A stretch of DNA of 64,000 bases from Bradymonadia bacterium (GTDB lineage Bacteria; Myxococcota_A; Bradymonadia; UBA7976; UBA1532), in the NCBI GenBank assembly GCA_046290225.1, contig JBKAGE010000036.1, forward strand, positions 160,001 to 224,000, in the 5' to 3' direction. The first letter of the stretch is position 1. Each line of letters opens with the position of its first letter. The translations under genes were made by a program, and so were the position numbers. Below are positions 1 through 59,909 of this stretch, piece after piece. The notes below the pieces were generated by a model that was not told the origin of the DNA, ran no database searches, and saw only the letters and a program-made list of their open reading frames with translations.

Positions 1-629
1 CGCGCGATGTTGTTGAACAGCTTCACCAGCTCGGCGCTGACGAAGTCGGTGTGCATGATGTCTTCGGTCAATCGACCGAAGAGGGCCGTGGCGGCCTCAC
101 GGCTGTTCGGATCTTGCGTGCCGATGATCTGGGGCAAAGTGCGCAGCTCTTCGTAGGCTTTGCCCTCGGCGATGCGCTCTGGGCAGAACGCCAGACACAC
201 ATCTTCACCGATGCGATGGCCCGTGCGGCGCTCCAACCACTTGCGCACATATTCGGTGGTGCCCGGCGCCACAGTGCTCCGCAGGCAGATGAGCTGGCCA
301 GTGCGCAGATGAGGGCTCACGCTCTCGAGCACCTTCTGAATCTGGCTCAGATCAGTCTCGATGTGATTGTGCAGCGGGGTGCCCACGGTGATCACCACCG
401 CTCGGCTCTTGGAGATGACCTCGGGCTCGCCGTGCACCTGGAATGCTTTGGTGGCGATGATCTCGCTGTACCCGGGCTCGTGGAATGGCATCACCCCGGC
501 ATTCACCGACTCTCGCAGGTTCGGGTCGATGTCCACCCCGGTGGCGTTGTACCCCACCTCGACGAGAGACAAGCCCAGGGGCAACCCCACTCGGCCAGTG
601 CCTACGATACAGACGTCATACTCGAACAT
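1..629 (-). CDS. Nucleotide-sugar dehydrogenase (UDP-glucose/GDP-mannose/UDP-ManNAc dehydrogenase family); 3' end outside window
   Basis: Own translation (not in ORF track): MFEYDVCIVGTGRVGLP (Rossmann motif), VITVGTP, LRSTVAPGTT, FCPERIAEG, AELVKLFNN. ATG at 629. Confidence 0.9.
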   Translation of the reverse strand, partial: MFEYDVCIVGTGRVGLPLGLSLVEVGYNATGVDIDPNLRESVNAGVMPFHEPGYSEIIATKAFQVHGEPEVISKSRAVVITVGTPLHNHIETDLSQIQKVLESVSPHLRTGQLICLRSTVAPGTTEYVRKWLERRTGHRIGEDVCLAFCPERIAEGKAYEELRTLPQIIGTQDPNSREAATALFGRLTEDIMHTDFVSAELVKLFNNIA

Positions 630-953
630 GTGCGCTCCGTGATCCTGAAGGCGTGGCCTGTGCCACTCCGGTGCCGGGTTATGCGGCGTCAGTTGGGGTG
701 TCGGCGCGAGCGGTGCTGGCCTTGAGACAGCCTCACTCGAAGAGACATCAACACATGGACGCCTCTCGACTCGAGAGTGTGACCCCAGCGGGCGGTCAAG
801 TGTCTCGGGGCTTACCGCGAAGATGCAATCCGGGCAAGGAAAGGCATGCCCCGAAGTGGGGCATTTAGCAGTGGTCAAACCTGTCTCGATGTAGGAGAAT
901 GCCTCATCTGTATAGATGTGTGCCTCTCATTCCTTACACCGAAGGGACTCGAC

Positions 954-3900
954 ATGGCCCTGAAACAGTTCTCCATCGCATGTGCAGGTCTGGCGACGCT
1001 GGCGCTGTGCAACACAGCAACGGCGCAGACGCCGGCCAACTGCGCAGGCATCCTCGCCGCAGGGCAGAGCGTGGGTGATGGCGTGTATGCCATCGACCCC
1101 GACGGCCCTGGCGGTGACGCCCCCTTCAACGCGTACTGTGACATGACCACTGATGGCGGTGGCTGGACGCTGGTGGGCAACCTGTTCAACCGGTGGGCCC
1201 AGACCCCTGCCCCGGGCCCCTTCTTCACGCAGGACATCACTCAGGCAAGCAATGGCTGGTCGGCGAACAATGGCAACGGCACCACCATCACGCCGGCTCA
1301 GCCCGGTGTGTTGAAGGTGGACGACTGGGAGGTGCCCACGGAGATTCGCTACCAGATGGTGGAGCGCTCCAATGGCATCGTCCGCAATCAGGTTGTGATT
1401 GACGACGCGGCCTCCATCACCCACGTCACGGGCCAGTTCAACGTGGAGCGTGATGCACGCAACGGCTCGGCAACGGGCTTCTCCACGCCCTTCAACCAGG
1501 ACCTCACCTTCTATTACGCCAGTGATTACGAGCACACCTGGCATTACTGGGGCGGCATCATGGGCCGCAGCCGCAAGCGCAACGGCTGGCAAATCGGTCT
1601 CTCGGTGAACCAGGCTGATGGCATCAACGGTTACAACAACATCAACGACGATCAGAACCGCGGCCACCTCAACATCGGCGTCGGCGGTGATCCCCAAGAC
1701 AACCGCGACATCACGGGTTACTGGGCCGGCCTCTGTGAGAGTCAGGGCTGCAACGAGCAGTGGGCCGCCAACCTCGGCTCGGCTACGGCCTCGTTCCGCA
1801 TCTGGTACCGCGGCATCTCCGACACCGACGCAGATGGCATCAACGACGAGCTCGACAACTGCCCTGCTGTAGCCAATGCCGATCAGGCCGACGGCGACAG
1901 TGACGGTGTGGGTGACGCCTGTGACGCGTGCCCGAATGACGGCACCAACGACGCAGACAGCGACGGCGTTTGCCAGGACGTAGACAACTGCCCCTCTGTC
2001 TCCAACGCAGACCAGCTCGATGACAATGGTGACGGCTACGGCGATGCCTGTGTGAGCACCGCCGCCAACATCGACCCCACGGCCACTCTGGGCAATGACA
2101 TCATCATCGGCCCCAACGCGGTCATCGGCAGCTACGCCAGCATCGGCGACGGCACCAACATCGGCGGCACTGTGGGTAACAGCGTGGGCATTGGCGCAGG
2201 CTCGGTGGTGCCCGACGGCTCGAGCGTCGGCAACGGCGCCCGCCTTGGAGCCAACGTGGGCCTCGGTACTGGTTGCTCGGTGGAGGTGCTCGCACGCTTG
2301 GGCGACAACGTCACCGCCGGCGACAACTGCTTCTTCGGCAGCAAGGCCAACGTGGGCGCCGGCAGCAGCTTCGGCGCCAACGTCAGCGTCGGTATCCAGG
2401 CCATCGTTGGCGACGGCTCGAGCTTCGCTGACGGCGCCAGCCTCGGCAACAACAGCCAGGTCGGCGCCAGCGCTGATCTGCTCGCCGGAGCCACCATCGG
2501 CAGCAACACCACCGTCGGCCACACCCTCAGCCTCGGCGCTGGCGGCAGCGTCGAAGGCAACACCGTCATCGGTGACGAGGCAATCATCGGCGCCGGCGGC
2601 ATCGTGCGTAGCTACGTGACCATCGGCAACAGCCTCGCCATGGGCGCTGGCGCTGAGTTTGCCTCTGGTGCCGCTGCAGGCGACGACGCCACCGTCGGTG
2701 AGAACTCCGAGATCCGCGGCGAGATCGGCAACAACGTCACGTTGGAAGACCGGGTGTTCATCGGCAACCAGAGCAGCGTCGGTGACAACGGCCACCTGCA
2801 CCACGACGTGAGCCTCGGCATCTTCGTCAGCTTGGGCTCCGGCGTCACCGTGAACGACGACAGCGCCATCTACGACGGCGCGACCCTCGGCGACGACAGC
2901 ACCGTGGGCGAGCGCACCACCATCTTGTTCCGAGCCAACATCGGCGCCCGGGCCAGCATCGGCGACGACGCCATCGTGGACGAGCAGAACACCATCGGTG
3001 ACGACTTCGTCCTGGGGAACAACAGCCGCCTCTGGCCCCGCTCGACGTACGGGCACAACGTCAACATCGGGGCCAACGTGCTCATCCGCGACAGCGCCGA
3101 CGTCGGCGACGGCGTCACGGTCGAGGATGACGTCATCATCTTCCCCGAGAGCACCCTCGGCGAGGGCGCCATCATCCGCCAGGGCGTTGAGCTCGGCGTA
3201 GAGACCTGCGAGACCCGTGTCTGTGGGCAGGTCAACGTGGGCGGCTGCCAGGATGTCGGCGCCGATCTCGCCCCTGGGGCCAGCTCGGAAGATGACTGCG
3301 CAACCATCGATGGCGATCTGGTGGTCAACGCCAACAGCACCTTCGACCCCACCACCGCTTCGCTCGTGGGCCGCGCCCACCCCGACGCGGTGAACTTCCT
3401 CGCGGCGAGCTTCGGCGCCGACTCGGTCACCGTGAACGCCGATCTGTCGGGCCTCGAAGAGGGCGACGAGGTGTTGATCCTCAACCTGTACGGCAGCTCT
3501 GCCCGTCACAGCTCGGTGGGTGCCTACGAGTTCGCGCGCATCACCGCGCTGAACGAGGCCACCAACACCATCACCTTCGAGCAGAACCTCACCGCCACCT
3601 TCGGCAACGGCAGCAACGCCGATCTCATCGACCAGACGATTCTGGTGCAGCGTGTGCCCACCTACAGCTCTGCTGTCATCAACGGCATGATCACCGCTGA
3701 CGAGTTCAACCCCGCCAATGGCCGCGGCGGCGTGGTGGCCTTCCGCGTCGACGGCACCCTCACCTTCGGGGCCAACGGCAGCGTGAACGTCACCGCCATG
3801 GGCTTCCCTGGTGGCAACTGGGGCCAGGGGAACAACGCCCCTGGCCAGAGTGGCTTCAGCATCACCGGCAGTGGCGTCTACTCCCCTGCCAACGGCGGCG

Positions 3901-4487
3901 TGAACCCTCCGGCCAACTCAACTGGTGGCGCCGGTGGCCATGGTAACAGTCACGGCGGGTGCGGCGGCGGTGGCGGTGGTTATGTCATCCGTGGTGGCCG
4001 AGGCTCGACTGGCGGCTCCACCCATGGTACCCACATCCCCTATGGGGGTTACACCATCGGAAGCGCTGACCTCTCTGGTGGCCTGTTCTTCGGCGGCGGC
4101 GGCGGCGGTGGCGGTGACAACGACAACAATGCCCACATCGGCGAGGGTGGCTACGGTGGTGGTATCGTCTTCATCTCCGCCACCGAGATCGTCGATCTTG
4201 ATGTCATTGCCGACGGTGAAGAAGGCCACAACGGTGATGGGGGCGGCGGTGGCTGTGGTTACGCCATGGGTGGCTCCGGCGCCGGCGGCACCATCTACGT
4301 GGTGGCTGACACCATGACCATCCGCGAGGTCTCCGCCGAAGGCGGCATCCGCAACCTCAACGGCTCCGACTGCCGCAGCGACGGTCAGTTCCGTCCCTAC
4401 GGTGGCGAAGGCTCCGAGGGCCGCGTGCGCATCGATGGTGTCATCAACGGCGCCACAAACACCTCCCCGGCGCCCTACCGACCCTGA
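954..4487 (+). CDS. Secreted modular protein A: signal peptide, fibrinogen-like YCDxxxxGGGW domain, TSP3 repeats, long hexapeptide LbH, Gly-rich C-terminal domain
   Basis: ATG 954 after [59 protein letters not shown]; 63 hexad-type units; GGGGGG-rich tail. Confidence 0.85.
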
Positions 4488-4772
4488 TCGGCGCTCAATC
4501 TCTCCTCACGCCTCCCCACGCCTCTCCTCTCTCCTATAGATAGATGCCATTTCGGGCCGTCTCCGGTGCCCGAGACCTCTGATGATCCAACAGAGATTTC
4601 GAGGCACCTCTTCCGACCTTGCACACACCTTACACACCCACCCAAAGACACACCTTGCCCCACCATGAAACACATGTATCTTTATTAGTGACATACTCCC
4701 CACATTGATCCACATTGAGTTACAGGGACGCAGACGGAGCGGCAGAGGGAGACCAGAAGAGTGGAGTGCAGG

Positions 4773-7511
4773 ATGCATCGACCATCACGATCGAAAGCGC
4801 TGGGTCGCGTTTTCGTATTCGGGCTCACAACCCTGACATGTGCTGGGATCGCCCATGGAGGACAGGGCAACAACCACTGTGCCATTGATGACACTGGCCA
4901 GGTCAAGTGCTGGGGTCAGGGCCACAACGGCCGCCTGGGCCAGGGCGACACCTCTCATCGCGGCGACGGCGCCAATGAGATGGGTGATTTTCTCAGTTAC
5001 ATAGACCTTGGCACCAATCAACCTGTCGTTCAGGTGGCTCAGGGCGGGGGTCACACGTGTGCATTGTTCGACGATGGCGCGATCAAGTGCTGGGGTGACA
5101 ACGCCAACGGAGAGCTCGGGCAAGAGGACTTCACCACCCGCGGTGACCAGCCAGGTGAGATGGGGGCCAACCTGCCCTATGTCGATCTCGGCACGGGTCG
5201 TACGGTGGTCAGCCTCTCGGCAGGCTTCGATTACACATGCGCCATCCTCGACAACGGCGGGGTGAAGTGCTGGGGACGCAACAGCTTTGGCAACCTCGGC
5301 CTCGGTGACACCATTCGACGGGGCGCCTCCCCCGGTGAAATGGGCGACAATCTGGAATATGTGGATCTCGGCACAGGTCGAACCGCAGTTCAACTCTCGG
5401 CATCGGTGACGTTCACCTGCGCCGTCCTCGACGATGGCAGCGTCAAATGCTGGGGGCAAAACCCATATGGTCAGCTCGGCCTCGGCGACGTCTCGGCTCG
5501 GGGAGACGAGCCTGGGGAGATGGGCGACGCCTTGCCTGCCGTAGATCTCGGCACAGGTCGTACCGCCATCAGCGTCGCCACTGGCACCTCCAACGCATGC
5601 GCCATCCTCGATGATGGCAGCGTCAAGTGTTGGGGCCGGAGCTTCTTTGGAGAAAGCGGCGCCGGCGACGCACTCACTCGGGGCGACGAGCCCGGAGAGA
5701 TGGGTGACGCCTTGCCTGCTGTGGCTTTGGGGACTGATCGCACGGCCACCCAGCTGGCGTTGAGCGACTTTTCGTCCTGTGCCTTGTTGGACAATGGTGG
5801 GGTGAAGTGCTGGGGCCGCAACAGCTTTGGCAACCTCGGCATCGGCGACACCGCTCACCGCGGAGACAACGCCGGCGAGATGGGCAACGCGCTGTTCTAC
5901 GCAGGTACAGCCTCGGGACGCACGGTGCAGCAGGTCGCGGCCGGCGACAATCACACGTGCGCTTTGATCGACGACGGCACTGTGCAGTGCTGGGGCTACA
6001 ACACCTACGGGCAGCTCGGCCAGGGTCACAAGCTCGCCATCGGTGATGAAGCGGGCGAGGTGATCCCCACCGTGCCCCTCGGCGCTAACTTCACTGCAGC
6101 TGTGTTGGGTGGTGCCACCGGCGCCCCCATCGTGCCCGTGCAGTGCGACGTGCCCGACAACGACGGCGATGGTGTGTGTGGTGACGTGGACAACTGCCCC
6201 ACGGTGCCCAATGCCGATCAAGCAGATGACAACGGTGATGGCCATGGTGACGCCTGTGTCAGCCCCCTCGCCGACATCCACCCCACGGCCACGTTGGGCT
6301 TCGGTGTCGTGATCGGGGCCGAGGCCAGCATTGGCGCCTTCAGCAACATCAACGCCTATGCAACGGTGAACGGCACGGTGGGCGACAGCGTCACTGTGGG
6401 TCGGGAAGCCGTCGTACAGGCAGGGGCCATCGTGGAGAACGTCGCTCAAATCGGCGAGCAGACGCAGATCGGCGCCGGGTGTCAGATCGGTGTGCTCGCG
6501 AACATCGGCCCCGAGTCATCTCTCGGTGACGACTGCATCGTGGGTACCCGCGCAGTGGTCGGCGGAGGCGCCAACCTCGGCGCCAGATGCCAGATCGGCG
6601 CGCTGAGCACCCTCGACGAGCGCGCTCAGTTCCAGGCAGATGTCACCATCGGCAGCAACACCATCATCGGTGAGTTCCCACAGATCAGCGCCAACAGCAG
6701 CATCGGGAGCAACACTGTGGTGGGCAACAACCTGGTCATGACCCTCAGATCCACCATCGAGTCCAACACCACCATCGGCAACCAGGTCACCCTCTTCGAC
6801 GATGTGTCCATCGGCAACTACGTCATCGTCGGCAGCGCCCTCACCATGCTCTCGGGGGCAGAGCTCGCTGACGGTGTGGTCGTCGGCGACGCCGTGGATG
6901 TGGGCTCGAACAGCGAAATCCGCGGCACCCTCGAAGACTTCGTCGTCGTGGGCAACGACGCCTTCGTAGGCAACCAAAGCACCGTGGGCAGTCGGAGTGA
7001 GCTCCAGGACGGGGTCACCCTCGGCAGCTTCGTGACCTTGGGTGAGCTCGGCTTCGTACGCGCTGGAGCCACCCTGTACGACGGGGTGACCATCGGCATC
7101 GACTCTCACATCGGCGAAGACGTCACCATCCTCTACAACACCACCCTCGGCACGCGCCCCGTTGTGGCGACGGACGCCTTCATCGATGAAGGGAACACGT
7201 TCGGAGACTTCGTCCGCGTCGACCTTCGATCCCGCATCTGGCCCCGTGGCACCTTTGGTGACAGCGTCGTCGTGCACCCTGACGTGCTCATCCGCGAGCG
7301 GGCCCAGGTGGGTGATGGGGTCATCATCTGGAACGACGCCATCATCTACCCGGAGACCATCATCGGGGAGACCAGCCAGATCGGCCACGGCGTGGAAGTG
7401 GGTGCCGCAGACTGCGCACTGAGAGTCTGTGGGCAGGTCACCATCGGGTGTGGTGTCATCGTCGAAGACGATCTGGCTCCAGCCTCCACAGTGGGCGCCC
7501 TCTGCGACTGA
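4773..7511 (+). CDS. Secreted modular protein B: signal peptide, RCC1-like beta-propeller, TSP3 repeat, long hexapeptide LbH
   Basis: Seven ~60-aa (K/Q)CWG...GQLG...GEMGD.L..VDLG repeats; DNCPTVPNADQADDNGDGHGDAC; LbH colinear with protein A. Start 4773 or 4761. Confidence 0.85.
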   Translation: MHRPSRSKALGRVFVFGLTTLTCAGIAHGGQGNNHCAIDDTGQVKCWGQGHNGRLGQGDTSHRGDGANEMGDFLSYIDLGTNQPVVQVAQGGGHTCALFDDGAIKCWGDNANGELGQEDFTTRGDQPGEMGANLPYVDLGTGRTVVSLSAGFDYTCAILDNGGVKCWGRNSFGNLGLGDTIRRGASPGEMGDNLEYVDLGTGRTAVQLSASVTFTCAVLDDGSVKCWGQNPYGQLGLGDVSARGDEPGEMGDALPAVDLGTGRTAISVATGTSNACAILDDGSVKCWGRSFFGESGAGDALTRGDEPGEMGDALPAVALGTDRTATQLALSDFSSCALLDNGGVKCWGRNSFGNLGIGDTAHRGDNAGEMGNALFYAGTASGRTVQQVAAGDNHTCALIDDGTVQCWGYNTYGQLGQGHKLAIGDEAGEVIPTVPLGANFTAAVLGGATGAPIVPVQCDVPDNDGDGVCGDVDNCPTVPNADQADDNGDGHGDACVSPLADIHPTATLGFGVVIGAEASIGAFSNINAYATVNGTVGDSVTVGREAVVQAGAIVENVAQIGEQTQIGAGCQIGVLANIGPESSLGDDCIVGTRAVVGGGANLGARCQIGALSTLDERAQFQADVTIGSNTIIGEFPQISANSSIGSNTVVGNNLVMTLRSTIESNTTIGNQVTLFDDVSIGNYVIVGSALTMLSGAELADGVVVGDAVDVGSNSEIRGTLEDFVVVGNDAFVGNQSTVGSRSELQDGVTLGSFVTLGELGFVRAGATLYDGVTIGIDSHIGEDVTILYNTTLGTRPVVATDAFIDEGNTFGDFVRVDLRSRIWPRGTFGDSVVVHPDVLIRERAQVGDGVIIWNDAIIYPETIIGETSQIGHGVEVGAADCALRVCGQVTIGCGVIVEDDLAPASTVGALCD

Positions 7512-26065: not shown

Positions 26066-27229
26066 TCAGTCCAGGATCTCTTCGAGGAAGTCGCACAGAT
26101 CTTCGGCTCGGGCATCCCAGCCGTCAGGCTCCACCCGTGTGCGTCGGAGAGCGGCGGACTCGGGCGCAAGTTGCAGGGCCTCGGCGATGGCCTTTGCGAA
26201 GGCCTCGGCGCCGTCACCTGTGGGGACCAGATCGCCTACAGCGTTGACGATCTCCGGCATCGCTGTGGTGGCCACAGGGCGGCCGGTGGCCATGAACTCT
26301 CGGAGCTTGAGAGGGTTGATGGTGTCGGTCTGCTCGTTGCGTACATAGGGGATGATCAAGGCATCGGCGCTGGCGAGCCAGCGGGGCACCTCGTTGTAGG
26401 GCACCCCGGGCATGACGTGCACGTTGGGCAACGCGTCGAGGGTGTTCTCGGGGGCAGTCCTTGGGCCCACGAAGACGAAGTGCCATTCGGGGTGGGCCTG
26501 GGCCACGGCGGTGAGCATGGCGGCATCTACTCGGGAGTCGTACAGGCCCAGGCTCATCACCCTCGGGTGGGGCACGGCGGCCATGGGGGCAGGTGCCTCA
26601 CCGCCGGCGGCGAACATGTCGACGTCGACGCCGTGGGGCAGGCTCAGCGTGGGCATCCCCGGACGGGCGCGATCTTCGATCAGCTTTGCTGCGGTGCCCA
26701 CAAGAGCGTCGCAGCGCTCGATCAGATGGCGCTCGAGGGCCTTGATTGCCGTCGCCTCGTAGCCAGGCCACGTCTCGAAGTCGTCTACGCAGTAGTAGAT
26801 GAAGCTCGACTCTTCCAATCGTCCCACCAGGCCCGCCACCGTAGGCACCGTGGTGATCACGATCGGGCGGTGCATGCCCATGGCCTTCGCCTTGCGCACG
26901 ATCAATCGGCTGAGCACCTCGTCATTGATGCGGGCCCCTACAGGGTGACCATAGAACGGGTGCATCGGGGGCGAGAACCGCGTGAGACCTTCGGGCTCTG
27001 GGGCCCACGAAGGGGCGTTGTTCGTCGGGCCGCCGGGGCGCACCCAGCCACGGACCTTCTCCACGGTGCGCTCGATGTCGTAGCGCGTGATCCGCGGACG
27101 CCTCAGGCCGATGGTCTCCACCCACAACACCCGGTTGTGGGGGGCGATCCGCCGGAAGAGATGCTGGCTCGATGAAGGATGTCGACCCCAGTCGTCGCTG
27201 AAGACCACAAAATCCCGACCTCGGATCAT
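26066..27229 (-). CDS. Glycosyltransferase (GT-B, GT4/TuaH-like)
   Basis: YYCVDDF, HGVD, NPLKLREFMATGRPV; ATGA overlap with pbpC. Confidence 0.9.
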   Translation of the reverse strand: MIRGRDFVVFSDDWGRHPSSSQHLFRRIAPHNRVLWVETIGLRRPRITRYDIERTVEKVRGWVRPGGPTNNAPSWAPEPEGLTRFSPPMHPFYGHPVGARINDEVLSRLIVRKAKAMGMHRPIVITTVPTVAGLVGRLEESSFIYYCVDDFETWPGYEATAIKALERHLIERCDALVGTAAKLIEDRARPGMPTLSLPHGVDVDMFAAGGEAPAPMAAVPHPRVMSLGLYDSRVDAAMLTAVAQAHPEWHFVFVGPRTAPENTLDALPNVHVMPGVPYNEVPRWLASADALIIPYVRNEQTDTINPLKLREFMATGRPVATTAMPEIVNAVGDLVPTGDGAEAFAKAIAEALQLAPESAALRRTRVEPDGWDARAEDLCDFLEEILD

Positions 27230-29523
27230 CGCTCGCTCTCCACGCTGTGCTCGGAGGGGGAAGATAGGGCATCGCGGGGCGAGGCGGTAGCTTCCGGCAT
27301 CGGGTAGACGCTGAAGGCCACAGTTGGAGACGTTGCCACTGTGCGGCCATGGTCGTCGAGGGTGGCCACGGCGAGCCGGTGGCGCCCCCGCTCAGGGGAC
27401 CACCACAGCTGATGGTCAGGCTCGGACGTCTCGCCGATGATCTGCTCGTCGAGCAACCACCTCACGGTGACACCCTGGGGCGCTCTGGCCCGCAACAACA
27501 TCTGGCTGTGGGCCTCGCTCACGTCGGGATCCAGGGCAAAGGCGTCGTTGCGTTGAGGCCACTGCACGCTCAGCTCTGGTGCTGTCGATTTGGGCGCGGG
27601 CGACGCGGGCTGCTCGATGTCTTCGTCATCGGCGATGCACCACTCGGAGATGGTGTGCTCACAGTGTGTCAGATCTGCAGAATCTGTGTTGGGGCGGGGC
27701 CGAGCACACAGCGTACATGGTGTCAGGCCCTCTCGGCTGAACGCCCGTGGGGCCTGACCTCGTGTCAGCGTGTCCATGACGGCCCGCCAAAGCGGCGCCG
27801 CGCCGATGCCTCCGCTCACCTGTTTCATCGGCGCGCCGTCGAAGTTGCCCACCCACACACCTACGGTGAACCGATCGGTGAAGCCCACGGTCCAGGCGTC
27901 CGAGAAGTCGGCGCTGGTGCCGGTCTTTGCCGCAGCGGGGTATGGCGTCTCGAGGGGCCCGCTCCGACCGAAAGCGGGGGCCCGGGCCACAGGATCAGAG
28001 AGCATGTCGGTGATCAGGTGGGCCACATGGGCAGGCATGATCTGTGTGTGCTGGCTCGGTGCCTCACCCTGCCGCCACCGGGGTGGGCTGTAGCGTCCTC
28101 CGTTGGCCAGGGTGCGGTAGGCGTTGGCCAGATCGAGCAACCGGACCTCGGCGTTGCCCAGGGCGAGGCCCAGGCCATACTGCCCGGCGTGCTGATCGAG
28201 CCCAGTGAAGCCCAGCCGCCGTAGACGCTGGAGCAACGCCGGCACACCCACCTGCTCGGTCACCCACACTGCAGGCACGTTGTAACTACAGGCGAGGGCC
28301 TGTCGCGGGTAGACCCAGCCATGGAACGTACGATCATAGTTTCGAGGGCTCCACCGCCCTGTGGGTGTGGAGAAGTACACAGGCAAGTCGGGCAGCGGGG
28401 TATGCGGTGGGCCCTTCTCCATGGCGAGGCCATAGACGAAGGGCTTGAGGGTGCTCCCGGGCTGACGTCTGCGGATCACCATGTCAACCTGGCCCTCTCG
28501 CGGATCGAAGAAGTCGGCGCTGCCCACCCACGCGAGCAGCTCGCCCGTTGCGGTGTCGAGGACCACCGCCGCCCCCTGGCTGACCCCACGAGCGCTCAGA
28601 GCGTTCACCTGCTCCGATACAATGCGCTCCACCTGCCTCTGAACATCGAGGTCGAGGGTGGTGGGCACCACGCCAGGGGCCGGGCTCTGGCTCAGGGCCC
28701 AGGTGGTGAAGTGCGGTGCCGTGAGGTTCCGCCGCCCAGGGGCGAGGGTGATGGGCTCCGAGAGGGCCTCGCGCCATGTGGCCTCGTCGATGAACTCCAA
28801 GGTCAGCATGCGATCGAGGATCACGCGCTGGCGCTTGCGCGATCTGGCTTGATGGCTCAAAGGGTTGTTCAGGCTCGGTGCCCGGGGGATTCCCGCGAGC
28901 AGGGCCGCCTCGGCGAGGCTGAGGGCTGCAGAGGATTTGTCGAGGTAGAAACGGCTCGCTGCCTCGATGCCGAAAGTGCCGTGGCCGAAGGGCACGCGGT
29001 TGACGTACTCCGTGAGCACCCCCTGCTTGCCGATGGCCTGCTCCAGCCGCACCGCCAGCAAGGCCTCGTCGAGCTTGCCTCTGAGGCTTCGGGGCGCCCG
29101 TCGCATGTGCTTGACCACCTGTTGGGTGAGCGTGCTGCCTCCAGCCACGACCTCGCCGGCCTGCAGATTCTGAATCGCAGCACGGGCTACGCCTCGCCAG
29201 TCCACCCCGCTGTGATCGAAGAAGCGATGATCTTCGATGGCGATGAAGGCCAGCGGCACCCATGGGCTCACCGACTCGATCGAGCGCCAGTGGCCACGAC
29301 CCTCCATGGGGCCCAGCGCCTCTCTCAGCGGGCGCCCATGACGATCGAGCAGTCTCCAGCTCTCGGTGTCCCGACGGCTCAGATGCTCTTCGGGGAACGG
29401 CGCGCTCCACGCGACGAGGTAGAACACCAGCAACGCCAAAGCAGGGAGCAGAATGACCAGCCCCAAGGCCCCGAGGAGCCAGCGCCGGCGTCGGCTCCAC
29501 CAGGGACCTCGCCTCCCTGGCAC
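27226..29523 (-). CDS. pbpC: Penicillin-binding protein 1C
   Basis: EDHRF, GGSTLTQQ, STLK, SYN, KTG motifs; C-terminal Ig-like domain; near alpha-2-macroglobulin. GTG 29523 chosen to avoid overlap with yceI (track start 29619). Confidence 0.9.
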   Translation of the reverse strand: MPGRRGPWWSRRRRWLLGALGLVILLPALALLVFYLVAWSAPFPEEHLSRRDTESWRLLDRHGRPLREALGPMEGRGHWRSIESVSPWVPLAFIAIEDHRFFDHSGVDWRGVARAAIQNLQAGEVVAGGSTLTQQVVKHMRRAPRSLRGKLDEALLAVRLEQAIGKQGVLTEYVNRVPFGHGTFGIEAASRFYLDKSSAALSLAEAALLAGIPRAPSLNNPLSHQARSRKRQRVILDRMLTLEFIDEATWREALSEPITLAPGRRNLTAPHFTTWALSQSPAPGVVPTTLDLDVQRQVERIVSEQVNALSARGVSQGAAVVLDTATGELLAWVGSADFFDPREGQVDMVIRRRQPGSTLKPFVYGLAMEKGPPHTPLPDLPVYFSTPTGRWSPRNYDRTFHGWVYPRQALACSYNVPAVWVTEQVGVPALLQRLRRLGFTGLDQHAGQYGLGLALGNAEVRLLDLANAYRTLANGGRYSPPRWRQGEAPSQHTQIMPAHVAHLITDMLSDPVARAPAFGRSGPLETPYPAAAKTGTSADFSDAWTVGFTDRFTVGVWVGNFDGAPMKQVSGGIGAAPLWRAVMDTLTRGQAPRAFSREGLTPCTLCARPRPNTDSADLTHCEHTISEWCIADDEDIEQPASPAPKSTAPELSVQWPQRNDAFALDPDVSEAHSQMLLRARAPQGVTVRWLLDEQIIGETSEPDHQLWWSPERGRHRLAVATLDDHGRTVATSPTVAFSVYPMPEATASPRDALSSPSEHSVESER

Positions 29524-29544
29524 CGGAGCGCTACCCTGTGGGCC

Positions 29545-30060
29545 ATGATCTGCACCACCCGCAACGCCAGCATTCGCCTGCTCACCTTCCGCGAAGGTCT
29601 GCTCTCCCGTCTGGGTCACGATCTACAGCTCACACTCGAAGAGTTCTCCCTCACGATCGATCCGGAGACGGGAGAAGTCCAGGGGCGCTTCTTCCCCGCG
29701 AGGCTCGTGGTGGACGGCTCGGTGGAGCGCGGTGTGGTACGGCCTGATGGTCTCAAGGCCAGAGACAAGGCCCAGATCGCCCGAAACGTGCAGCGAGACG
29801 TGCTCCACGTCACCCGGTACCCCCACATCACATTCGAAGGTGCGCTGAGCGACGATGGCGCTTGGGTGAAGGGTGCGCTCACGATGGTGGGCCAGAGTCA
29901 CCCCATCGAGGTGCCCTTCGAGCGCCGCGGTGGCCGTCTGCAGGGCGAGGTGAGCCTCACCCCCTCGCGTTGGGGGATCCCACCCTACACCGCCCTCCTC
30001 GGCGGCATCCGCCTCCAAGATCGCGTAATCCTGCGGTTTGACTTGCCTGATCCCGGGTGA
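29545..30060 (+). CDS. YceI-family protein
   Basis: 3' part of track ORF 28321-30060: TFREGLLSRLGHDL, VLHVTRYPHITF, KGALTMVG, WGIPPYTALLGGIRLQDRV. Confidence 0.85.
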   Translation: MICTTRNASIRLLTFREGLLSRLGHDLQLTLEEFSLTIDPETGEVQGRFFPARLVVDGSVERGVVRPDGLKARDKAQIARNVQRDVLHVTRYPHITFEGALSDDGAWVKGALTMVGQSHPIEVPFERRGGRLQGEVSLTPSRWGIPPYTALLGGIRLQDRVILRFDLPDPG

Positions 30061-30066
30061 CGACGC

Positions 30067-33000
30067 TCAGGGCGTCGCGCTGGCCTGCTCCGCTCGAGGA
30101 TGCACCCACAGTGATCCGCCGCTGCTGTTGCCTCTGACCTCGGGGGTGTACATCTCCTCGGCGATGGCCGGCGGGTGCACGAAGGTGCCTGCGGTGGTGG
30201 CCCGGGCGGTGTAACTGTATTCGTGCACGCCTGGGGGCAGGTGATCGGCGAAGAGCACCACCCGCTCGTCGCGCATCTCGGTGTGATCGAAGGGGCTGAA
30301 CCACTGACTCCGGCCGCTGAGATCCACGCTCGAAGAGCCTGGGCTGTTCGACGCGTCGGCGCTGTTGATCCGAGACTCGGTGAGCAGATCGGTGTTGATG
30401 GCTTCGAGACCACCGGGGATCGGGTCGTCGACGACGACGTAGTATCGGGGAGCGGTGTTGGCCACTCGGAGCCTCACCTGGACCACCTGGCCTTCTTCCA
30501 AGGCGGTGAGGCGCTCACTGCCACCGACGGCGGTGATCCACCGCTGGACCACGATGCCCTGATCTCTCGCCTTGGTGTCGATGGTGCCCGGCACGTACTC
30601 GAGCACGGCGCTGTAGTGCAGCGGCCCCTGCCCCTCGGCGTTGAAGATGATGGGCAATCGGCTCTTGAAGCGCCCGAGGTAGGCCAGCGGGATGGTCTTG
30701 GTGATGCGCCCCAGGCTGTGGCCCTGGAACTGCTGCTGAGCGACGTCTTCTGCCTGACCGCCATTGCCGAGCACCACGCGGCCCACGAGGTTGGGGGCCT
30801 CGCCCTCTACCGCGGCGCTGTAGTCGGCCAAAGCCATGAGGCTGAAGGCGGTCTCCTGCGTGTTGCGCCACTTGCCGCCACGGCGCGCCTTGAGCACGGT
30901 GAACGCCATCCTGGCCAGGTAGGGATGATCAGGTCGCACCTTCACAGCGGCGGCGAGGACCATGGCGGTGGTGCGCACGCTGCTCGAGAACTGCGCGCTG
31001 TAGGTGCTCTGATCGATGTCCACCAGCTGCACGCCCCGGGCGTTGACCTGGGCGCCGTTGAACATCTCCACCAGCAGGGTCTGAGCCTGCTCGCTCTTGG
31101 GATCGAGCTCTGCCATGGCCCGGGCCAGCATGGCCTTGCCGAAGAGGGCCATGCTGGCCCGGCGGGCGTACAGTCGACGGTTGAACTCCCGGCTGCCGGA
31201 CCCCTGTCGCGCGAGGACGAAGGCCGCAAAGGCCCGAGACTCGTCGGTGCGCGGCCGCCACGCCACACAAGGCGACTTCGGATCCCAAGCCTCCTTCAGA
31301 TAGCCACGGGCGCGCTCGAGCACCTTCGGATCCACCGGATAACCCTGAGCTGCAGCGTCACCGAGGGCCAGGGTGGCGTAGGCGCTGCCCCAGTAGTGAG
31401 CGCACGTAGATCCGGGCCAGTACCTGAAGCCCCCGTCGGGCCCCTGCAGTTTGGTGATGGCGGTGATGGCCTCTTCGACGACCTGAGCGGGCTCGCGATC
31501 CCCCACCCACTGCTCGCCATATCGATCCATGAGGCCCTTGAGGGCGACGAAGGGCACCAGCCTGCTGGACTGCTGCTCAAGGCAGCCATAGGGGTACTCG
31601 ATGAGCTGCTCGACGCCCTCCTTGAGGCCCACCAGAGCGCTCGCCGCCATCGTCACCGAGAGCGATCCCACATCTCGACGGCTCGACACCGGCACCTCGA
31701 TGTTCTCGGTCCGGGCCATGGCGGGGATCTCCGCTCTGACCTGACCATAGGTGGCCACCACTTGCGGAGACGCAGGGAACTTGATGGGCAGCGGGATCTC
31801 CACGGCGTCGCTGTGATCTGCGCTGCGTACGGTGAAACGCACCGCAGAGCCCGGGGCGTCAAGGCGACTCGCCCGCTGGACCTTGAAGGCGAAGCGCACC
31901 TCACGGCTCTTGCCCGGCGGGACCATGATCTTGCGGCTGAGGGGCTCCAGGCCCTCAATGGCGCCATCGAGGATCTCCCCTTCGATCCAGACCTCGGTGG
32001 GTGTGTCGGCGAGGGTGTTCACCACGACGCCAGCGGCGAAGGTGTCGCCGATGCGGGCCATACGAGGCAGGGCCGGCCGAGCCATGAGCGGAGCGCTCAC
32101 CACCACCTTGCCTTCGCCCACGCCTCCTCGATCGTCTGCGGTGACCGCCAGGGCCATCAGCCTGAACGTGGTCAGGTTGTCGGGCAGCTGACCCTTCACG
32201 ACCGCCTTGCCGTCGTCACCGGTCTGCACCGCACCTACGAAGAGCGGCGTCGTGGTGAACTTTCGGCGCACGTCGAGGGCATCCTGCCCGCCCCCACCGC
32301 CGCCGCGGTTGCGGCCCTTCTCACCAAAGGCGAGCTGGGGCAGCAGGTGACTGAGGTTGGTGGACTGATAGACGCTCAGGCCCCGTCGGCGATACATCGA
32401 CGCCACGGGATCAGGGGGTTGATACCCTGTGAGGGCCAGAACCCCCTCGTCCACGGCCCACACGGTCACCTCGCTGGCGACGCCGCGACCGTCCTTGTCT
32501 TTGACGTGTACGTTCACCACCAGCGACTCACCGGGGCGCTTGGACTCGGCGTCGGGGCTCAGCTCTACCTGCAGACGTTTGTGCTCAGGGGACACCTTCA
32601 GCTCGGCATAGCCCACCCGGAAGGCCGGTCGACCCGGATCACCATCTCCGCGACCTGGAGGCGCTACACGACCGCGGGTGAGCACGACGCCCACAAAGGC
32701 GTTGGGGATCATGTCGGCGGTGACGGGGATCTCGACGGACTGAGCGTTGCCAGTGAGGGTCATGCGCTTGGACCACAAGAAGCCCTCGCGCTCTACAGTG
32801 AGCCAGGCCTCGGCTTTCTGGAACGGGTTCTGGATCAAGATCCGGGCATTCTCTCCTGGGCTGTACTGGCTGCGGTCGAGAACCACCTCCACCTTGGCGT
32901 CGTCGTCCCGCATCCATGGCGCCTCCCCCTCGCCGAGCACCCAGAGGGCGTCGGTGCTGCGGGTGAGCCGCCCCTGGGCATCTCTGGCCTCGACGACGAG

Positions 33001-36000: not shown

Positions 36001-36078
36001 CGTACGCGCGTGATCTCGGGGAAGCATCCAGGGAAGAGAGAGCATGGTCGGGCGCTCCAGAGCAGAACTTGCGGTCAT
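30067..36078 (-). CDS. Bacterial alpha-2-macroglobulin (lipoprotein)
   Basis: TERGIYRPGE, VDEGVL, LPDNLTTFR, thioester motif GCLEQ, EEMYTPE; lipobox FIGC. Start may be 36027-36078. Confidence 0.95.
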   Translation of the reverse strand: MTASSALERPTMLSLPWMLPRDHARTASALPWIIVVLNAMFFIGCGDDKPSRPSKEGPHRSGSVQTPPEQVEAHQAVPVIPPGAPSPGQSAPPPRAPRIAPNPDAAPLSVVVSGPRGPVKHHPRPTITFDRPVHALGAPDGPAPAHIAPPVPGRWRWVGSSTVEFVPDGPVPWATTFSVTTSDTLVALDGGVLSAPHTFTFETPRLQAIGGNPVNAWRDLPWARANESFEVHFNQKPLEADLAGKIVFRDSEGAEVPAQIVRTESWEENLRRIVEARGEKLSPRLPVLGPTGVPVVDRRTVVTVTPKQPLALNTRYLLVIPRGVRAHSGTLPSETSAAWPFSTYSPLKVRWVGCKKWHGTCPEGPITLTFSTPVTGEALKKALKITPPVDIAWPTHEGAVSDWTLYGNFSPRTEYRMKIEGNLEDEFGQRLGTLFEASFITGDRPSEIYSVGSRGLIERGLRAALPVNHVNVARLAVSWAPLSVKQALTYMQGPWSEKLPMKAQKLSLPLEGAPNRQMRSPLDLEPLFEGRSDGARVAIVEMTPEGKKDAYPARTLVQITDLGVHMKVAPVAGRVMVWRLSTGAPVAGAEVVIVDGEGKQHATARTDASGLAKIPGVYQMTLPKKDKWGYPYYGPPFFAAQVTAEIDGQTDVAFASTATRGILSPWRLGVESEWASDGPRTEGLLFTERGIYRPGETIYVKGVLRVRRLGQLSPPENRTLDVKLMDPRGKEVATTTLDASPQGSFHTTFSVPEDGALGQYQIVVNQADDKLTWQTQATVAEYRPPAFLVDVHPEQRNLVAGTSVKATAEGRYLFGGAMSGASVRWSVQAYDTDFTPEPVDGANLEAYTFGRRDAWWDDTATSGLGEVVAGGLWTLDDTGAFKIDGGASEAPEDRVRTYAVEAAVTDVDRQTLAGRSTMQVHPAAVWVGLKGPEGFAQAGAPFDVHAVAVGTPGTEDGGALVSGIRGEVKLMRQVWHTVKKKTALGTFETVSERRPEEVARCALNTTGAGEAPGKCTVQAEAPGFHTLVVEARDAQGRLTRSTDALWVLGEGEAPWMRDDDAKVEVVLDRSQYSPGENARILIQNPFQKAEAWLTVEREGFLWSKRMTLTGNAQSVEIPVTADMIPNAFVGVVLTRGRVAPPGRGDGDPGRPAFRVGYAELKVSPEHKRLQVELSPDAESKRPGESLVVNVHVKDKDGRGVASEVTVWAVDEGVLALTGYQPPDPVASMYRRRGLSVYQSTNLSHLLPQLAFGEKGRNRGGGGGGQDALDVRRKFTTTPLFVGAVQTGDDGKAVVKGQLPDNLTTFRLMALAVTADDRGGVGEGKVVVSAPLMARPALPRMARIGDTFAAGVVVNTLADTPTEVWIEGEILDGAIEGLEPLSRKIMVPPGKSREVRFAFKVQRASRLDAPGSAVRFTVRSADHSDAVEIPLPIKFPASPQVVATYGQVRAEIPAMARTENIEVPVSSRRDVGSLSVTMAASALVGLKEGVEQLIEYPYGCLEQQSSRLVPFVALKGLMDRYGEQWVGDREPAQVVEEAITAITKLQGPDGGFRYWPGSTCAHYWGSAYATLALGDAAAQGYPVDPKVLERARGYLKEAWDPKSPCVAWRPRTDESRAFAAFVLARQGSGSREFNRRLYARRASMALFGKAMLARAMAELDPKSEQAQTLLVEMFNGAQVNARGVQLVDIDQSTYSAQFSSSVRTTAMVLAAAVKVRPDHPYLARMAFTVLKARRGGKWRNTQETAFSLMALADYSAAVEGEAPNLVGRVVLGNGGQAEDVAQQQFQGHSLGRITKTIPLAYLGRFKSRLPIIFNAEGQGPLHYSAVLEYVPGTIDTKARDQGIVVQRWITAVGGSERLTALEEGQVVQVRLRVANTAPRYYVVVDDPIPGGLEAINTDLLTESRINSADASNSPGSSSVDLSGRSQWFSPFDHTEMRDERVVLFADHLPPGVHEYSYTARATTAGTFVHPPAIAEEMYTPEVRGNSSGGSLWVHPRAEQASATP

Positions 36079-36119
36079 CGTGTGCTCGCCCAGGGTCGGT
36101 GTCAATCGAAGGCACCACC

Positions 36120-56291: not shown

Positions 56292-59200
56292 TCATCGAAT
56301 CAGCAAGTGGCTGCTGTGGTACCAGCTGTTGTTGCCGCCCATGCCTGAGCCCCAATAGTTCCCGTACATGTAGTTCGAGGTGCTGCTGCCCAGGTAGGCG
56401 TAGTTGCTCACGTGGAACAGGGCCAGGTAGTTGTTGTTCGAAGCGCGGGGGTACCAGTAGTAGTAGCCCGAAGCCGAGCTGCCACCCACATCCGTCCAGC
56501 CGCTGGCGAAGTTGAGCTTGTAGTAGAGGTTGTCGCCCGAGGTGAGATCCTGGTTCGTGCCGTAGTTGGGCATGATGTTGCGGTTCTTCACGCGGTGGAT
56601 CACCTTGCGACCCCAGTTGTCCCAGCCAGGGCTGAAGTTCCCCTGGTCGAGCACGATGCCGAACTCGATGGGCCACTCCACACCGGCGAGCACACGCCAG
56701 TCGGTCCAGGCGCCGTCACTGTTGGGCTGCGCCTCGTACTCCGGGCGGCCGATGAAGGCATCCTGTCGGGCCACCATGTAGAGCGCGTAGTCGCGGTTGG
56801 CGTGGCCCGCAGGGGCGAAGGCCTGGGCGCCGCGCTTGTAGTTGCCCACCACCGTCCAGCCGCCGCCGTCCGTGGTCATGTCGCAGTACACGTTGAAGGG
56901 ATCGATGCCGCCCTCACCATCGGGATCGATGCGGTACACGCCGTCGCCGATGTCACCCTCGTAGCGCAGGTTGACGTCGGTGGGGTTGCGGTAGTCGTTG
57001 CAGGTCGCGGCGTAGCCGTCGTTCTGGTAGGCGCGGTAGCCCGCCTCCATCAGGCGGATCTGACCGCACTCGTCGTCACCCATCGAGCCGCCGATGCCCG
57101 GATCGCCGTTGATGTCCATGCACACGCCGATGGTGACCCCACCACAGCCCACGGCCTGGCAGTCCCCCTCGCCGATGCGCACGTTCTCCCGGATGAAGGT
57201 GCTGTGACCCACAGTGGTGTCGGGGTAGATGACCACGCCATTCTCCACCGTCACGTCATCCTCGAACTCAGCCTCCTCGCGGATCAGCACATTGTCGCCC
57301 ACGGTGAGGTTGTGGCCGAAGGTGCTGCGGGGCCAGATGCGGCTGTTGGTGCCCACGGTGAGGTTGTCGCCGATGGTGACCTGCTCGTCGATGATGGTGT
57401 CGTTGCCCACAGTGGCGCTGGCGCCGATGGAGGTTCGGAACAGGATGGTGCAGCTCTCGCCGATGCTGCCATCCTCACCAAGGACCACGCCGTCGTAGAT
57501 ACCCGTGGTGGCGCCGACGCTGCAGCGAGCGCCCAGGTCGACGAAGATGCCCAGGCTCACGTCGTCGAAGAGCTCGCACTCGTTCCCGACGACACTCTGG
57601 TTCCCGACGAATACGTTGTCGTGCAGGGTGGCCGACTCGCCCACGTCGCCGCGGACCTCACAGCCCCCACCCAGAGTGGCGTTGCTGCCCACCGTGGCCC
57701 CAGAGGCCAGCTCCGCGCCGTCACCGAGGGAGACGCCGTCGCCCACCGTGGTGAAGTCGCTGATCACCACGTTCTCGCCAAGGGTCAAGTCGTTGCCGAT
57801 GGTGTTGTTCGGACCGATGCTGGAGCCGGCACCAGCGTTAAGGCTGTTGCCGACCTGCGTGTTCGAGCCCACCGAGGTCCCCGCAGCGAGGGTGGCGTCG
57901 TCACCGAAGTTCGAGCTGTTCCCCACCGTCACGCCGGCGGCGATGCTGGCGCGGTCACCGAAGATCGTGAGCTCGCCGATGCTCGCCCCGGCGCCGATGC
58001 TGCTGTCAGCACCCACCTCCACCTTGGTGGCCAGCTGGCAGCCGTCACCGAGGCTTGAGTTGGCGCCCACGGAGACCAGGATCCCCAGGGCACAGTTGGC
58101 GCCTACCGCGGTGTTGTCACCGATTTGGCTGTTGGTGCCCACAGAGGCACCGGCACCAACGCTCGCTCCAGCGCCCACGACGACGCCCTGGCTCACCGAG
58201 CCATAGACCGAAGCCCCGTCGCCGATGTGAGCATAGGGACCGATGACAGCGTTCTCCCCGATGAGCAGGCTGCTGCCCAGAACAGCGGTCTCTGCGATGT
58301 TCGCGCTGACGCTCACACAGGCGTCGCCGAAGCCATCACCGTTGTTGTCTGCCTGATCAGCGTTCGACACGTGGGGGCAGTTGTCGACGTCCTGGCAGAT
58401 GCCGTCGCCATCATCATCGTTGGTGGCGTCAAAGGCACATGCATCACAGGCGTCGCCAGCACCATCGCCATCACTGTCGGCCTGATCAGCGTTCGCCACG
58501 AGCGGGCAATTGTCGTCACTGCAGACGCCGTCGCCATCAACGTCGTCACACTTCGGCCGATCAGAGAGCGCAACCACATTGAAGGCACCATTCAAGGGGA
58601 CATAGGACAGGCTGTTACCCATCTCCCCATTGTTGTCGCCGCGATTGCTGGTGTCGCCGAGTCCCAACTGACCATAGTTGTTCCAACCCCAACACTTGAC
58701 ACCACCCTGGTCGAAAAGGGCGCACTGGCTATAGATGGCCATGTTGATCTCTTTGATGGTCAAGCCATCGCCGAGGGGCACCCTGTTCAGGTTGTTGCCC
58801 ATCTCCGCAGCGCTGCTGCCGAGGTTGGTGGTGTTGCCGGTACCAAGCTGACCTTGAGCGCCATAACCCCAGCACTTCAGGGTGCCGTCGGTGAGCTCGG
58901 CGCAGACATTGTAGACATCCACCCAGATGTTCTCAGCCAGCAGAGGATTCCCGCTACCATCGGTACCGAGATCCACATAGCTTTCATTGCTGGGGTTGGA
59001 GACGTTGCCACCAGCGCTGCGGCCCAGCTGCTCATAGCTGTTGTTGCCCCAGCACTTGACCCGCTGGTTGTCCAACAGCGCACAAACAGTACCCCACCCG
59101 ATGCCAACTTGGAGGGCGGTGCGGCCGGGGCCGAGATCGATGGCCGGCAGATTGTCACCCATCTCATTGGGGGCATCCCCCCGGTTTCCGCCACCACCGA

Positions 59201-59909
59201 GGCCGTTCTGGCCATAGTTGTCGACGCCCCAGCACTTCAACGCGCCGTTGTCCAAAATCGCGCAGCTGTTGTGATACCCGGCGGCGATGTCCACGGCTGT
59301 GCGACCGGCGCCGAGCTCAGCGTAGCCGAGGTTGTCACCCATCTCGCCGGCCTGATCACCCATGAAGCCGGAGTGGCCGAGGCCCGACTCCCCGTGGCTG
59401 TTGTAGCCCCAGCACTTCACCTTGCCGTTATCGAGGATCGCACATGTGTGATAGGTCCCGGCGTCGACATCCACCGCGTAGCGCCCAGTACCGAGCTGAA
59501 CCGCCGGAAGAGCGTCGCCCATCTCGTTGGCTTGGTCACCATAGTTCGCGGTGGTGCCCAGACCCGTCTGACCATATTGGCCATTGCCCCAGCACTTCAG
59601 CTGATCATTGTCGAGGATGGCGCAGCTATGGCTCCACCCGCTGTTGATCTGTTTGACTGAGCGACCAGTGCCGAAGTTGATGAACGGCAGGTTGTCACCC
59701 ACCTCACCACCACCATCGCCCAGGCTGGTTGTGGAACCCTGGCCGAGCTGACCGTGAGAGTTGTAGCCCCAGCACTTTGCCTGGCCGTTCTCGAAAAGCG
59801 CACAGTGATGATAATCATGCACCGCGAGGGCAGAAGAAGTGCCCAGCAGGGTCAGCACCCCTGCGGCGCCGAGCGCCTTCAGCAGTGAACGGTGAGAAAT
59901 CGTGGTCAC
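56292..59909 (-). CDS. Secreted modular protein C: signal peptide, RCC1-like propeller, TSP3 repeats, long hexapeptide LbH, C-terminal fibrinogen-like YCDxxxxGGGW domain
   Basis: GGAGG RBS and GTG 59909; seven KCWG repeats; TSP3 motifs; LbH colinear with A and [14 protein letters not shown]. Confidence 0.85.

Follow-up and report, generated by a model that had tools for sequence, protein, structure and literature searches.

Three genes in the 64,000-nucleotide stretch of Bradymonadia DNA analysed here (the window) encode proteins, denoted A, B and C, in which a common hexapeptide-repeat stalk is joined to different terminal domains. A survey of the 8.6-Mb genome (G000) with a profile of the stalk core, a check proposed in an earlier note on this DNA, yielded 34 complete paralogues with 14 domain architectures, and the family is far larger than the three members that the note had seen. 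The explanation that we favour, with a probability somewhat above even, is that the family serves as a set of secreted recognition rods, probably trimers, that carry swappable heads and are confined to one lineage.

A stalk of constant length

The open reading frames (ORFs) of all three genes are intact. In each protein, 395 aa from the end of the TSP3 repeats through a Cys cap align without gaps at 41-47% identity, which bears out the common stalk and cap described in the earlier note. Gene A (954..4487, forward strand, 1177 aa) encodes a Sec-type signal peptide (954..1025, assigned by eye and by a crude rule), an N-terminal fibrinogen-like head with the motif YCDxxxxGGGW (1026..1817, end approximate; Pfam Fibrinogen_C and NF040941), TSP3 repeats that end in GDxC directly abutting the solenoid (1821..2057) and that, from knowledge of the family, we take to bind Ca, the stalk core (2058..3242, with the cap at 3207-3242), and a Gly-rich C-terminal head (3303..4484, start approximate). 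The N-terminal head scores 70.9 bits with NF040941 (cut-off 30), the match being limited to its first ~46 aa. The Gly-rich head is similar to unnamed Myxococcota and tailed-phage clusters in the ESM Atlas (0.96-0.97) and matches NF047640 below the cut-off (E 1e-16, 60.7 vs 275); searches of PHROGs and the PDB gave no match. Gene B (4773..7511, forward strand, 912 aa; alternative upstream GTG start at 4761) encodes a signal peptide, an RCC1-like beta-propeller head (4860..6110, limits approximate; WD40_RLD over the cut-off, UVR8 E 3e-28), a short TSP3 segment and the 395-aa core with cap (6264..7448), and has no C-terminal head. Gene C (56292..59909, reverse strand, 1205 aa) encodes a signal peptide, an RCC1-like head (58575..59822, limits approximate), TSP3 repeats, the 395-aa core with cap (57126..58310), and a disulfide linker with a C-terminal fibrinogen-like head (56295..57125) that is 72% identical to the head of the metagenome protein P0031. 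Pfam reproduced the domain orders given earlier: partial Fibrinogen_C, TSP_3 and Hexapep (117 bits) in A, RCC1 and Hexapep (129 bits) in B, and RCC1, TSP_3, Hexapep (148 bits) and partial Fibrinogen_C in C, the fibrinogen-related domains (FReDs) of A and C being partial matches only. The TSP3 repeats attributed to all three proteins are present in A and C; B has a single weak repeat (14.7 bits, below the cut-off).

The cores of A, B and C contain 64 strands of the type [LIV]-G-x-x-[STAV]-x before the cap, three per coil, which corresponds to 21-22 coils and, at the textbook rise of 4.8 A, to a rod of about 10 nm, as had been estimated before. The description of the repeat as uninterrupted is nearly exact, as the strands follow each other without inserted loops and deviate only at two conserved 4-residue short turns. 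The distance from GDxC to the cap is 389 aa in 31 of the 32 anchorable cores of this genome (391 in the remaining one; two of the 34 complete cores are not anchored by this pattern and stand outside the count) and in 12/12 members from other sources. Core length is thus constant in 43/44 measurable members, at identities among paralogues of 36-93%.

Inward-facing Cys on adjacent coils co-occur: among 46 related sequences, positions 73/91 are paired in 22 and single in 6, positions 127/145 in 14 and 2, and positions 245/263 in 22 and 7, respectively. Together with the two invariant Cys of the cap, this indicates disulfides and an extracytoplasmic location. The 34 complete cores have neither a conserved His column (the best reaches 12/34) nor inserted loops, no helix is present in the model of the A core, and all NCBIfam enzyme models listed remained below the cut-off on the family. 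These sequence features support the view, also taken in the earlier note, that the stalk would be a non-catalytic extracytoplasmic beta-solenoid spacer.

In coils 12-22, one face of three is conserved (entropy 0.71 vs 2.01 and 1.80), and in coils 1-11 the same face is hardly so (1.83 vs 2.04 and 1.91). Across all coils it is the most conserved face in 15/21 (coil-level permutation p=5e-5), and it holds nearly all aromatic residues of the stalk (8.7 vs 0.4 and 0.3 per chain). This conserved edge is the signature of an interface. By analogy with the enzymes that contain a left-handed beta-helix (LbH), the stalk probably trimerises via this edge; in one of them, the gamma-carbonic anhydrase Cam, salt bridges of Arg59, Asp61 and Asp76 are reported to support the trimer (PMC12635333).

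Composition, head exchange and distribution of the family

In addition to the 34 complete canonical genes, which include A, B and C, the core profile detected 10 divergent genes, which differ in length, and 6 core fragments at contig ends. Four further end fragments bring the halves to five N-terminal and five C-terminal ones, and the number of canonical genes to about 39. The family occupies 45 ORFs and about 185 kb, or 2.2% of the assembly, and nine genes form one 32-kb array on contig C35. At the N-terminus, 20 of the 34 proteins carry an RCC1 head, two a multi-RCC1 head (frames of 3,537 and 5,203 aa) and seven a FReD-like head; L-lectin, Ig/PKD, TSP3/CglD-like, unknown and no head occur once each. 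The C-terminal heads are FReD/COLFI-like in 24 cases and Gly-rich, LamG, F5/8-like (below the cut-off) and unknown in one case each; the remaining six canonical members end within ~24 aa of the cap, and most divergent members also stop after the solenoid. Some members lack a head, whereas the largest heads exceed 4,700 aa. A full-length FReD was recognised in 3/30 C-terminal segments and a partial one in 23/30; the three match ficolin/tenascin-type FReDs over ~190 aa (E 4e-32, one searched). Giants of 3,500-5,200 aa with many RCC1 propellers and a TSP3-solenoid end are encoded at C44:74949-90557, C77:71967-82577 and C36:69437-81331 (L020, L010 and L024), and one divergent member (L028:1067-2866, contig C29) has a dockerin-type domain ahead of the TSP3-solenoid.

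That the heads are exchangeable, as the earlier note had supposed, is evident from mosaic genes, a stalk tract shared between genes with different heads, and counterparts of the heads in other sources. A and a paralogue on C54 are 85% identical in both the N-terminal part and the core, and 20% in the C-terminal part, where their heads are unrelated. The gene at C35:190661 has an N-head that is 89% identical to that of one paralogue and a C-head that is 86% identical to that of another, and the RCC1 head of C83 is 78% identical to that of a gene whose core is 55% identical. Two genes with heads that are 62% and 30% alike share an identical stalk tract of 503 nt. Strong breakpoints were found in 8/34 cores with MaxChi (for each gene the highest value from at most 28 triplets, uncorrected, counting only chi values of about 35 or more); the trees of this analysis have long branches.

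Members from outside this genome comprise 12 full-length metagenome proteins and one partial NCBI protein. Of the C-heads in these members, 11 in number, nine each correspond to one head of this genome, with 59-74% identity compared with a median of 31% between FReD paralogues, whereas the outside cores are 44-56% identical to those of this genome and, with the exception of one pair, cluster according to source. The heads are paired differently in four of the outside genes (P0026, P0040, P0045 and P0058). Since heads have counterparts across sources and cores group by source, the sequences indicate that the heads are a conserved repertoire and that the stalks of a genome undergo concerted evolution. 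Hypervariable heads of the kind made by diversity-generating retroelements are rejected, because the heads are more conserved across sources than the stalks.

The canonical family had no match in 40 relatives (E 1e-30) and none was found in 112 other genomes of the class (E 1e-60, at most 16 candidates scored per genome); 400 genomes of the phylum (8 candidates scored per genome) gave one weak match only, many of the genomes in these surveys being incomplete. The weak match (L097, G300:C285) is a large secreted-looking protein in which a hexapeptide solenoid lies between other extracellular domains. A scan of a genome-contig collection returned no close relative (40 loci, all generic hexapeptide matches at E 1e-8 or weaker), nor did 107 pattern matches in a metagenome-contig collection or 91 in a viral-contig collection, and the core gave only leads under 0.9 in the ESM Atlas; one search for outside members was diluted by TSP3-only matches. 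The partial NCBI protein (P0023) is labelled Phycisphaerales and lies on a 2.5-kb contig; it is 74% identical to a region of A, its N-terminus is nearly that of C35:187479, and it is probably mis-binned or transferred. The family is apparently lineage-restricted, or lineage-expanded, and apparently undescribed: in agreement with the earlier note, none of the titles listed by literature searches, with subscription journals mostly outside their coverage, describes this architecture.

A looser superfamily extends beyond the canonical members. From 134 further listed matches, 36 were selected for their appearance. Each of the 36 has Hexapep, in many cases combined with TSP3, C- or L-lectin, PKD, FG-GAP, LamG, EGF, trypsin, GH43, M12 or M19 domains. 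Several have the GDxC junction and a special corner once per coil. In P0224, P0239 and other wider members, an arginine ladder runs along one corner with a period of 18 residues. Two such matches with FG-GAP domains and a long solenoid are named LpxD-like acyltransferases by their source, and recognition of the TSP3-solenoid module would correct such names in databases.

Fold, export and competing explanations

The earlier note assigned the stalk to the LbH fold. At the level of sequence, the best 60 of 148 matches of the core to solved structures are all LbH proteins, the closest being LpxD, QdtC, LpxA and GlmU (E 2e-18 and weaker). AlphaFold2 predicted a confident continuous solenoid for the A core (mean pLDDT 90.2) and, in a shorter model run to test for an effect of length, for the C-terminal half of the C core (pLDDT 89.6), but both models are right-handed and hence, taken literally, the non-LbH models that the note had named as speaking against its proposal. 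LbH chains are the top distance-based matches of both (Z 18-21), yet they superpose at root-mean-square deviations of 11.6-12.1 A, i.e. as mirror images. Right-handed helices fit both models, the best of them at 2.2-3.5 A. Among the Foldseek matches listed for the models there was no LbH, bactofilin and ice-binding-protein folds were not among the matches listed either, and Foldseek against viral models gave no informative match.

These results raise the possibility, compatible with any function of the stalk, that it is a right-handed triangular beta-helix built of hexapeptide repeats. Two separate models that match LbH proteins only as mirror images would argue for it, and triangular right-handed helices with similar short turns exist in bactofilins and DUF3494 proteins. 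Nevertheless, we consider such a fold improbable, because the leading sequence matches are LbH proteins, the best right-handed solved chains reach Z values of at most 14.5 with no more than 13% identity, and a bias of AlphaFold2 toward right-handed solenoids has been reported for repetitive sequences (PMC12775518; bioRxiv 10.1101/2025.03.18.644030). For the same reasons, the right-handedness of the models is probably an artefact, a mirror artefact being the likelier cause; the name LbH for the stalk rests on sequence.

Signal peptides had been predicted for A, B and C. They are visible by eye, and all 34 paralogues pass a crude rule; this rule is weak alone, as it is also passed by 1337/3049 background genes. 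Twin-arginine export is rejected, a strict motif being present in 2/34 family members vs 52/1337 background proteins. A secretin of the type II secretion system is encoded in the genome, and this would probably be the route of the stalk proteins. A Myxococcota host, perhaps of the class Bradymonadia, is suggested by 20 MYXO-CTERM matches in the genome and by a neighbouring kinase, whose named relatives bear the labels Myxococcota, Myxococcales, Persicimonas, Bradymonadaceae, Bradymonas and, once, Deltaproteobacteria. No MYXO-CTERM was seen on the family itself, and no anchor family was found in the 30 C-terminal segments, so that the rods may be non-covalently bound or released as bridges.

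Under the favoured explanation, each chain would be exported by the Sec pathway, form its disulfides in the periplasm and probably leave the cell by type II secretion. A Ca-bound TSP3 collar would cap a rigid, non-catalytic hexapeptide rod of ~10 nm, and the conserved edge would pack three chains in parallel, placing three copies of each head at opposite ends of the rod for avid, multivalent binding. To judge by the families to which they belong, the ligands of the heads (RCC1, fibrinogen-related, L-lectin, LamG, F5/8-like and Gly-rich) might be glycans or proteins, whether of prey, of kin or of surfaces. The sequences show that the shared stalk is also where recombination brings the heads of a stable pool into new combinations. 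The rods might be either cell-bound or released as two-headed bridges. Bradymonadia have been described as predators (PMC11509652, PMC7460792).

Several points weigh against this explanation. The trimer, the ligands and predation by this organism are predicted at most; the conserved edge could fit a groove for a common partner or a glycan equally well; and both AlphaFold2 monomer models are right-handed. Most FReD matches span only ~45 aa. No membrane anchor was found, the family having neither a C-terminal transmembrane segment nor a lipobox, and inspection by eye around the family loci revealed no conserved neighbour gene and no dedicated partner or operon. Shuffling is not universal, as five outside genes keep their head pairs (P0031, like C, P0032, P0036, P0059 and P0125), and for two of the 11 C-heads from outside this genome offers no clear counterpart (20% and 33%). 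Lastly, contigs break at near-identical stalks, and chimeric assembly at these sites could explain some mosaics within the genome; it is unlikely to be the cause of the pattern across sources.

It could also be that the TSP3-solenoid unit is a display or sorting tag, the edge of which binds the cell's own surface polysaccharide, a scaffold protein or a secretion machine and thereby holds unrelated secreted domains at the surface, trimerisation not being its role. We regard this as unlikely but worth serious attention, as no other anchor was found, 6/34 canonical and most divergent members end directly after the solenoid, and the GDxC-solenoid junction ends many unrelated large proteins (lectin, PKD, FG-GAP, trypsin and M19) and in others precedes GH43, M12 or EGF domains. 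The edge is, in addition, rich in W, Y, F, R, D and E, as glycan-binding grooves are. A tag would, however, not obviously need an invariant length, 28/34 canonical members have a further head after the module, and both FReD/COLFI heads and hexapeptide helices generally occur as trimers. A precedent for a tag might be the invariant domain of the mosaic adhesive trimer (MAT) fibres of Bdellovibrio, which has been proposed to bind the predator surface (PMC10769870). A co-polymerised coat, lattice or matrix, either S-layer-like or an extracellular fibril, in which the spacing would follow from the length of the stalk and the heads would be its decoration, would account for the constant length across divergent cores and sources, the homogenised stalks within the genome and the share of the assembly devoted to the family. 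It is nevertheless quite improbable: both ends of the solenoid are capped, by TSP3 and by the two invariant Cys, which argues against end-to-end filaments, the divergent members differ in length, and the heads vary from absent to enormous. Least probable by far is an enzymatic role of the stalk, in the periplasm or outside the cell, as an acyltransferase or in the manner of gamma-carbonic anhydrases. The closest solved sequences are enzymes of this kind and the conserved edge includes R, D and E, but the scores of the enzyme models stay below their cut-offs, the conserved His, the active-site loops and the C-terminal helix bundle are absent, and the core has 21-22 coils vs about 10 in the enzymes. 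A bolder extension of the recognition-rod explanation, which we hold to be rather unlikely, is that the stalks are a universal in-register oligomerisation rod, held at one length and homogenised within the genome so that paralogues co-assemble. About 39 chains could then form thousands of heterotrimers with up to six different heads, a combinatorial, ficolin-like innate recognition in a predatory bacterium. A widespread, undescribed and possibly right-handed TSP3-solenoid module for display on secreted enzymes and lectins would then have its most elaborate form in this family.

Relation to known systems and neighbouring genes

The best reading of the comparisons below is that the family would be a mosaic adhesin repertoire on an unexpected scaffold, working like MAT fibres or ficolins while being a member of neither. 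The MAT fibres of the predator Bdellovibrio bacteriovorus are described as 21 paralogues with signal peptides, a conserved stalk and swapped lectin-like tips, for which broad prey recognition is proposed; in them, an N-terminal domain of ~130 aa that does not vary is combined with intertwined phage-like beta-prisms, capping loops and, often, S74. The fibres are long and flexible, with a model of Bd3182 measuring ~55 nm (PMC10769870). The large paralogous repertoire, the signal peptides and the chimeric tips exchanged on a common stalk are shared with the family described here. In contrast, its stalk is a hexapeptide solenoid of fixed ~10 nm with a TSP3 collar, and it bears RCC1, FReD and other variable heads at both ends. 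After the signal peptide it has variable heads (RCC1 in 22, FReD in 7, others in 4 and none in 1 of 34) and not a MAT-type invariant domain. The MAT capping-loop motif V-G-G/N-x-x-x-P-x-x-x-L is present in 0/45 ORFs and S74 in none of 30 C-terminal segments. Membership in the MATs thus fails on both the N-terminal domain and the stalk.

The same heads occur on other stalks. FReD-like motifs are found in 29/40 relatives, mostly with 1-12 matches, with 53 in G006 and 42 in this genome. In the stretches analysed of G006, a genome of the same family, FReD-like domains are arranged in tandem, and the stalk that bears them has matches to families of phage tail fibres (E 1e-18); the proteins (L105-L109: C18:46001-63000, C16, C176, C40 and C2) consist of a signal peptide, an N-terminal domain of ~130 aa, the tail-fibre-like stalk and FReD tips, and from their resemblance we take them to be MAT-like. 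Two of these fibre tips contain a domain with 58-63% identity to the N-head of unknown type in C35:187479. Together with the similarity of the Gly-rich head of A to Myxococcota and tailed-phage clusters, such sharing of heads between stalks is the strongest indication that the hexapeptide rod takes the place of a fibre stalk. In G038 (L110 and L111, on C13 and C11), FReD-like domains are set as tandem pairs on Cys-rich DUF4215 repeat stalks of lipoprotein-like proteins. In relatives, heads of the same pool thus seem to be carried by phage-fibre or Cys-rich stalks. A proxy hidden Markov model built from the G006 N-terminal domains matched 11 other ORFs of G000 and no family member; these eleven proteins, which lack the FReD motif, form a second repertoire (C71:57340, C53:38319, C77:126590, C76:27337, C39:78577, C4:32066, C50:28239, three genes at C52:32158-36065, and C2:89656).

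The hexapeptide beta-helix is a textbook scaffold of cytoplasmic enzymes. With LpxD, LpxA, GlmU and Cam, and with YdcK, the stalk shares the hexapeptide motif, the triangular coil of 18 residues and its best matches in sequence and distance matrices; unlike the enzymes, it has twice the coils, is secreted, contains paired core Cys and no catalytic His or loops, and is flanked by adhesin-type domains. The fold would have been adopted for structural purposes outside the cytoplasm, with a helix about twice as long as usual, and would provide a second, independent answer to the problem, posed also for MATs, of a broad bacterial recognition repertoire. A FReD head on a stalk is likewise found in ficolins, tachylectin-5A and intelectins. 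Here, however, the protein is bacterial, a beta-solenoid takes the place of collagen (no collagen family was detected in Pfam-type scans of A, B, C and the head segments), a second head is present at the opposite end, and most heads diverge past their first ~45 aa. About two dozen conserved bacterial FReD-like heads become testable for ligands, and a rigid, disulfide-locked 10-nm rod that takes domains at both ends could be a useful scaffold.

In trimeric autotransporters the beta-roll is the head, has shorter repeats and is followed by a coiled coil and, at the C-terminus, a beta-barrel, whereas in the present family the solenoid is a spacer and no beta-barrel is present. Identity with these adhesins is rejected, given the C-terminal segments without an anchor family and the six members that end near the cap. 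The A core model does match UspA1 (Z 12.2); in UspA1, as in YadA, the beta-roll is left-handed, trimeric and exposed outside the cell (PMC7616799). The myxobacterial CglD, MtsC/D and AgmC are likewise secreted proteins compared here for their TSP3 repeats; the N-head of C56 resembles CglD and MtsD, and the C-head of A resembles the N-terminal part of AgmC, all below the cut-off. We know of no CglD, MtsC/D or AgmC with a long hexapeptide solenoid.

In the window, a UDP-glucose/GDP-mannose dehydrogenase gene (3-878, reverse strand) is divergent from A and is followed, outside the window, by an epimerase-like gene; this context is not present at other family loci. An HNH endonuclease gene (60016-60531, reverse strand) lies immediately upstream of C on the same strand. 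The remaining observations concern three genes on the reverse strand: 51413-52690 encodes a protein of 425 aa that starts like a lipoprotein and contains four Cys-rich LSC..CF..C.QND.AC repeats with Gly/Pro linkers between them, and for which Pfam gave no family over the cut-off; 27226-36174 contains an ordinary bacterial alpha-2-macroglobulin (2035 aa) near a PBP1C-like gene; and 42885-47051 encodes a 1388-aa protein that combines CHAT (caspase-like), AAA and TPR domains.

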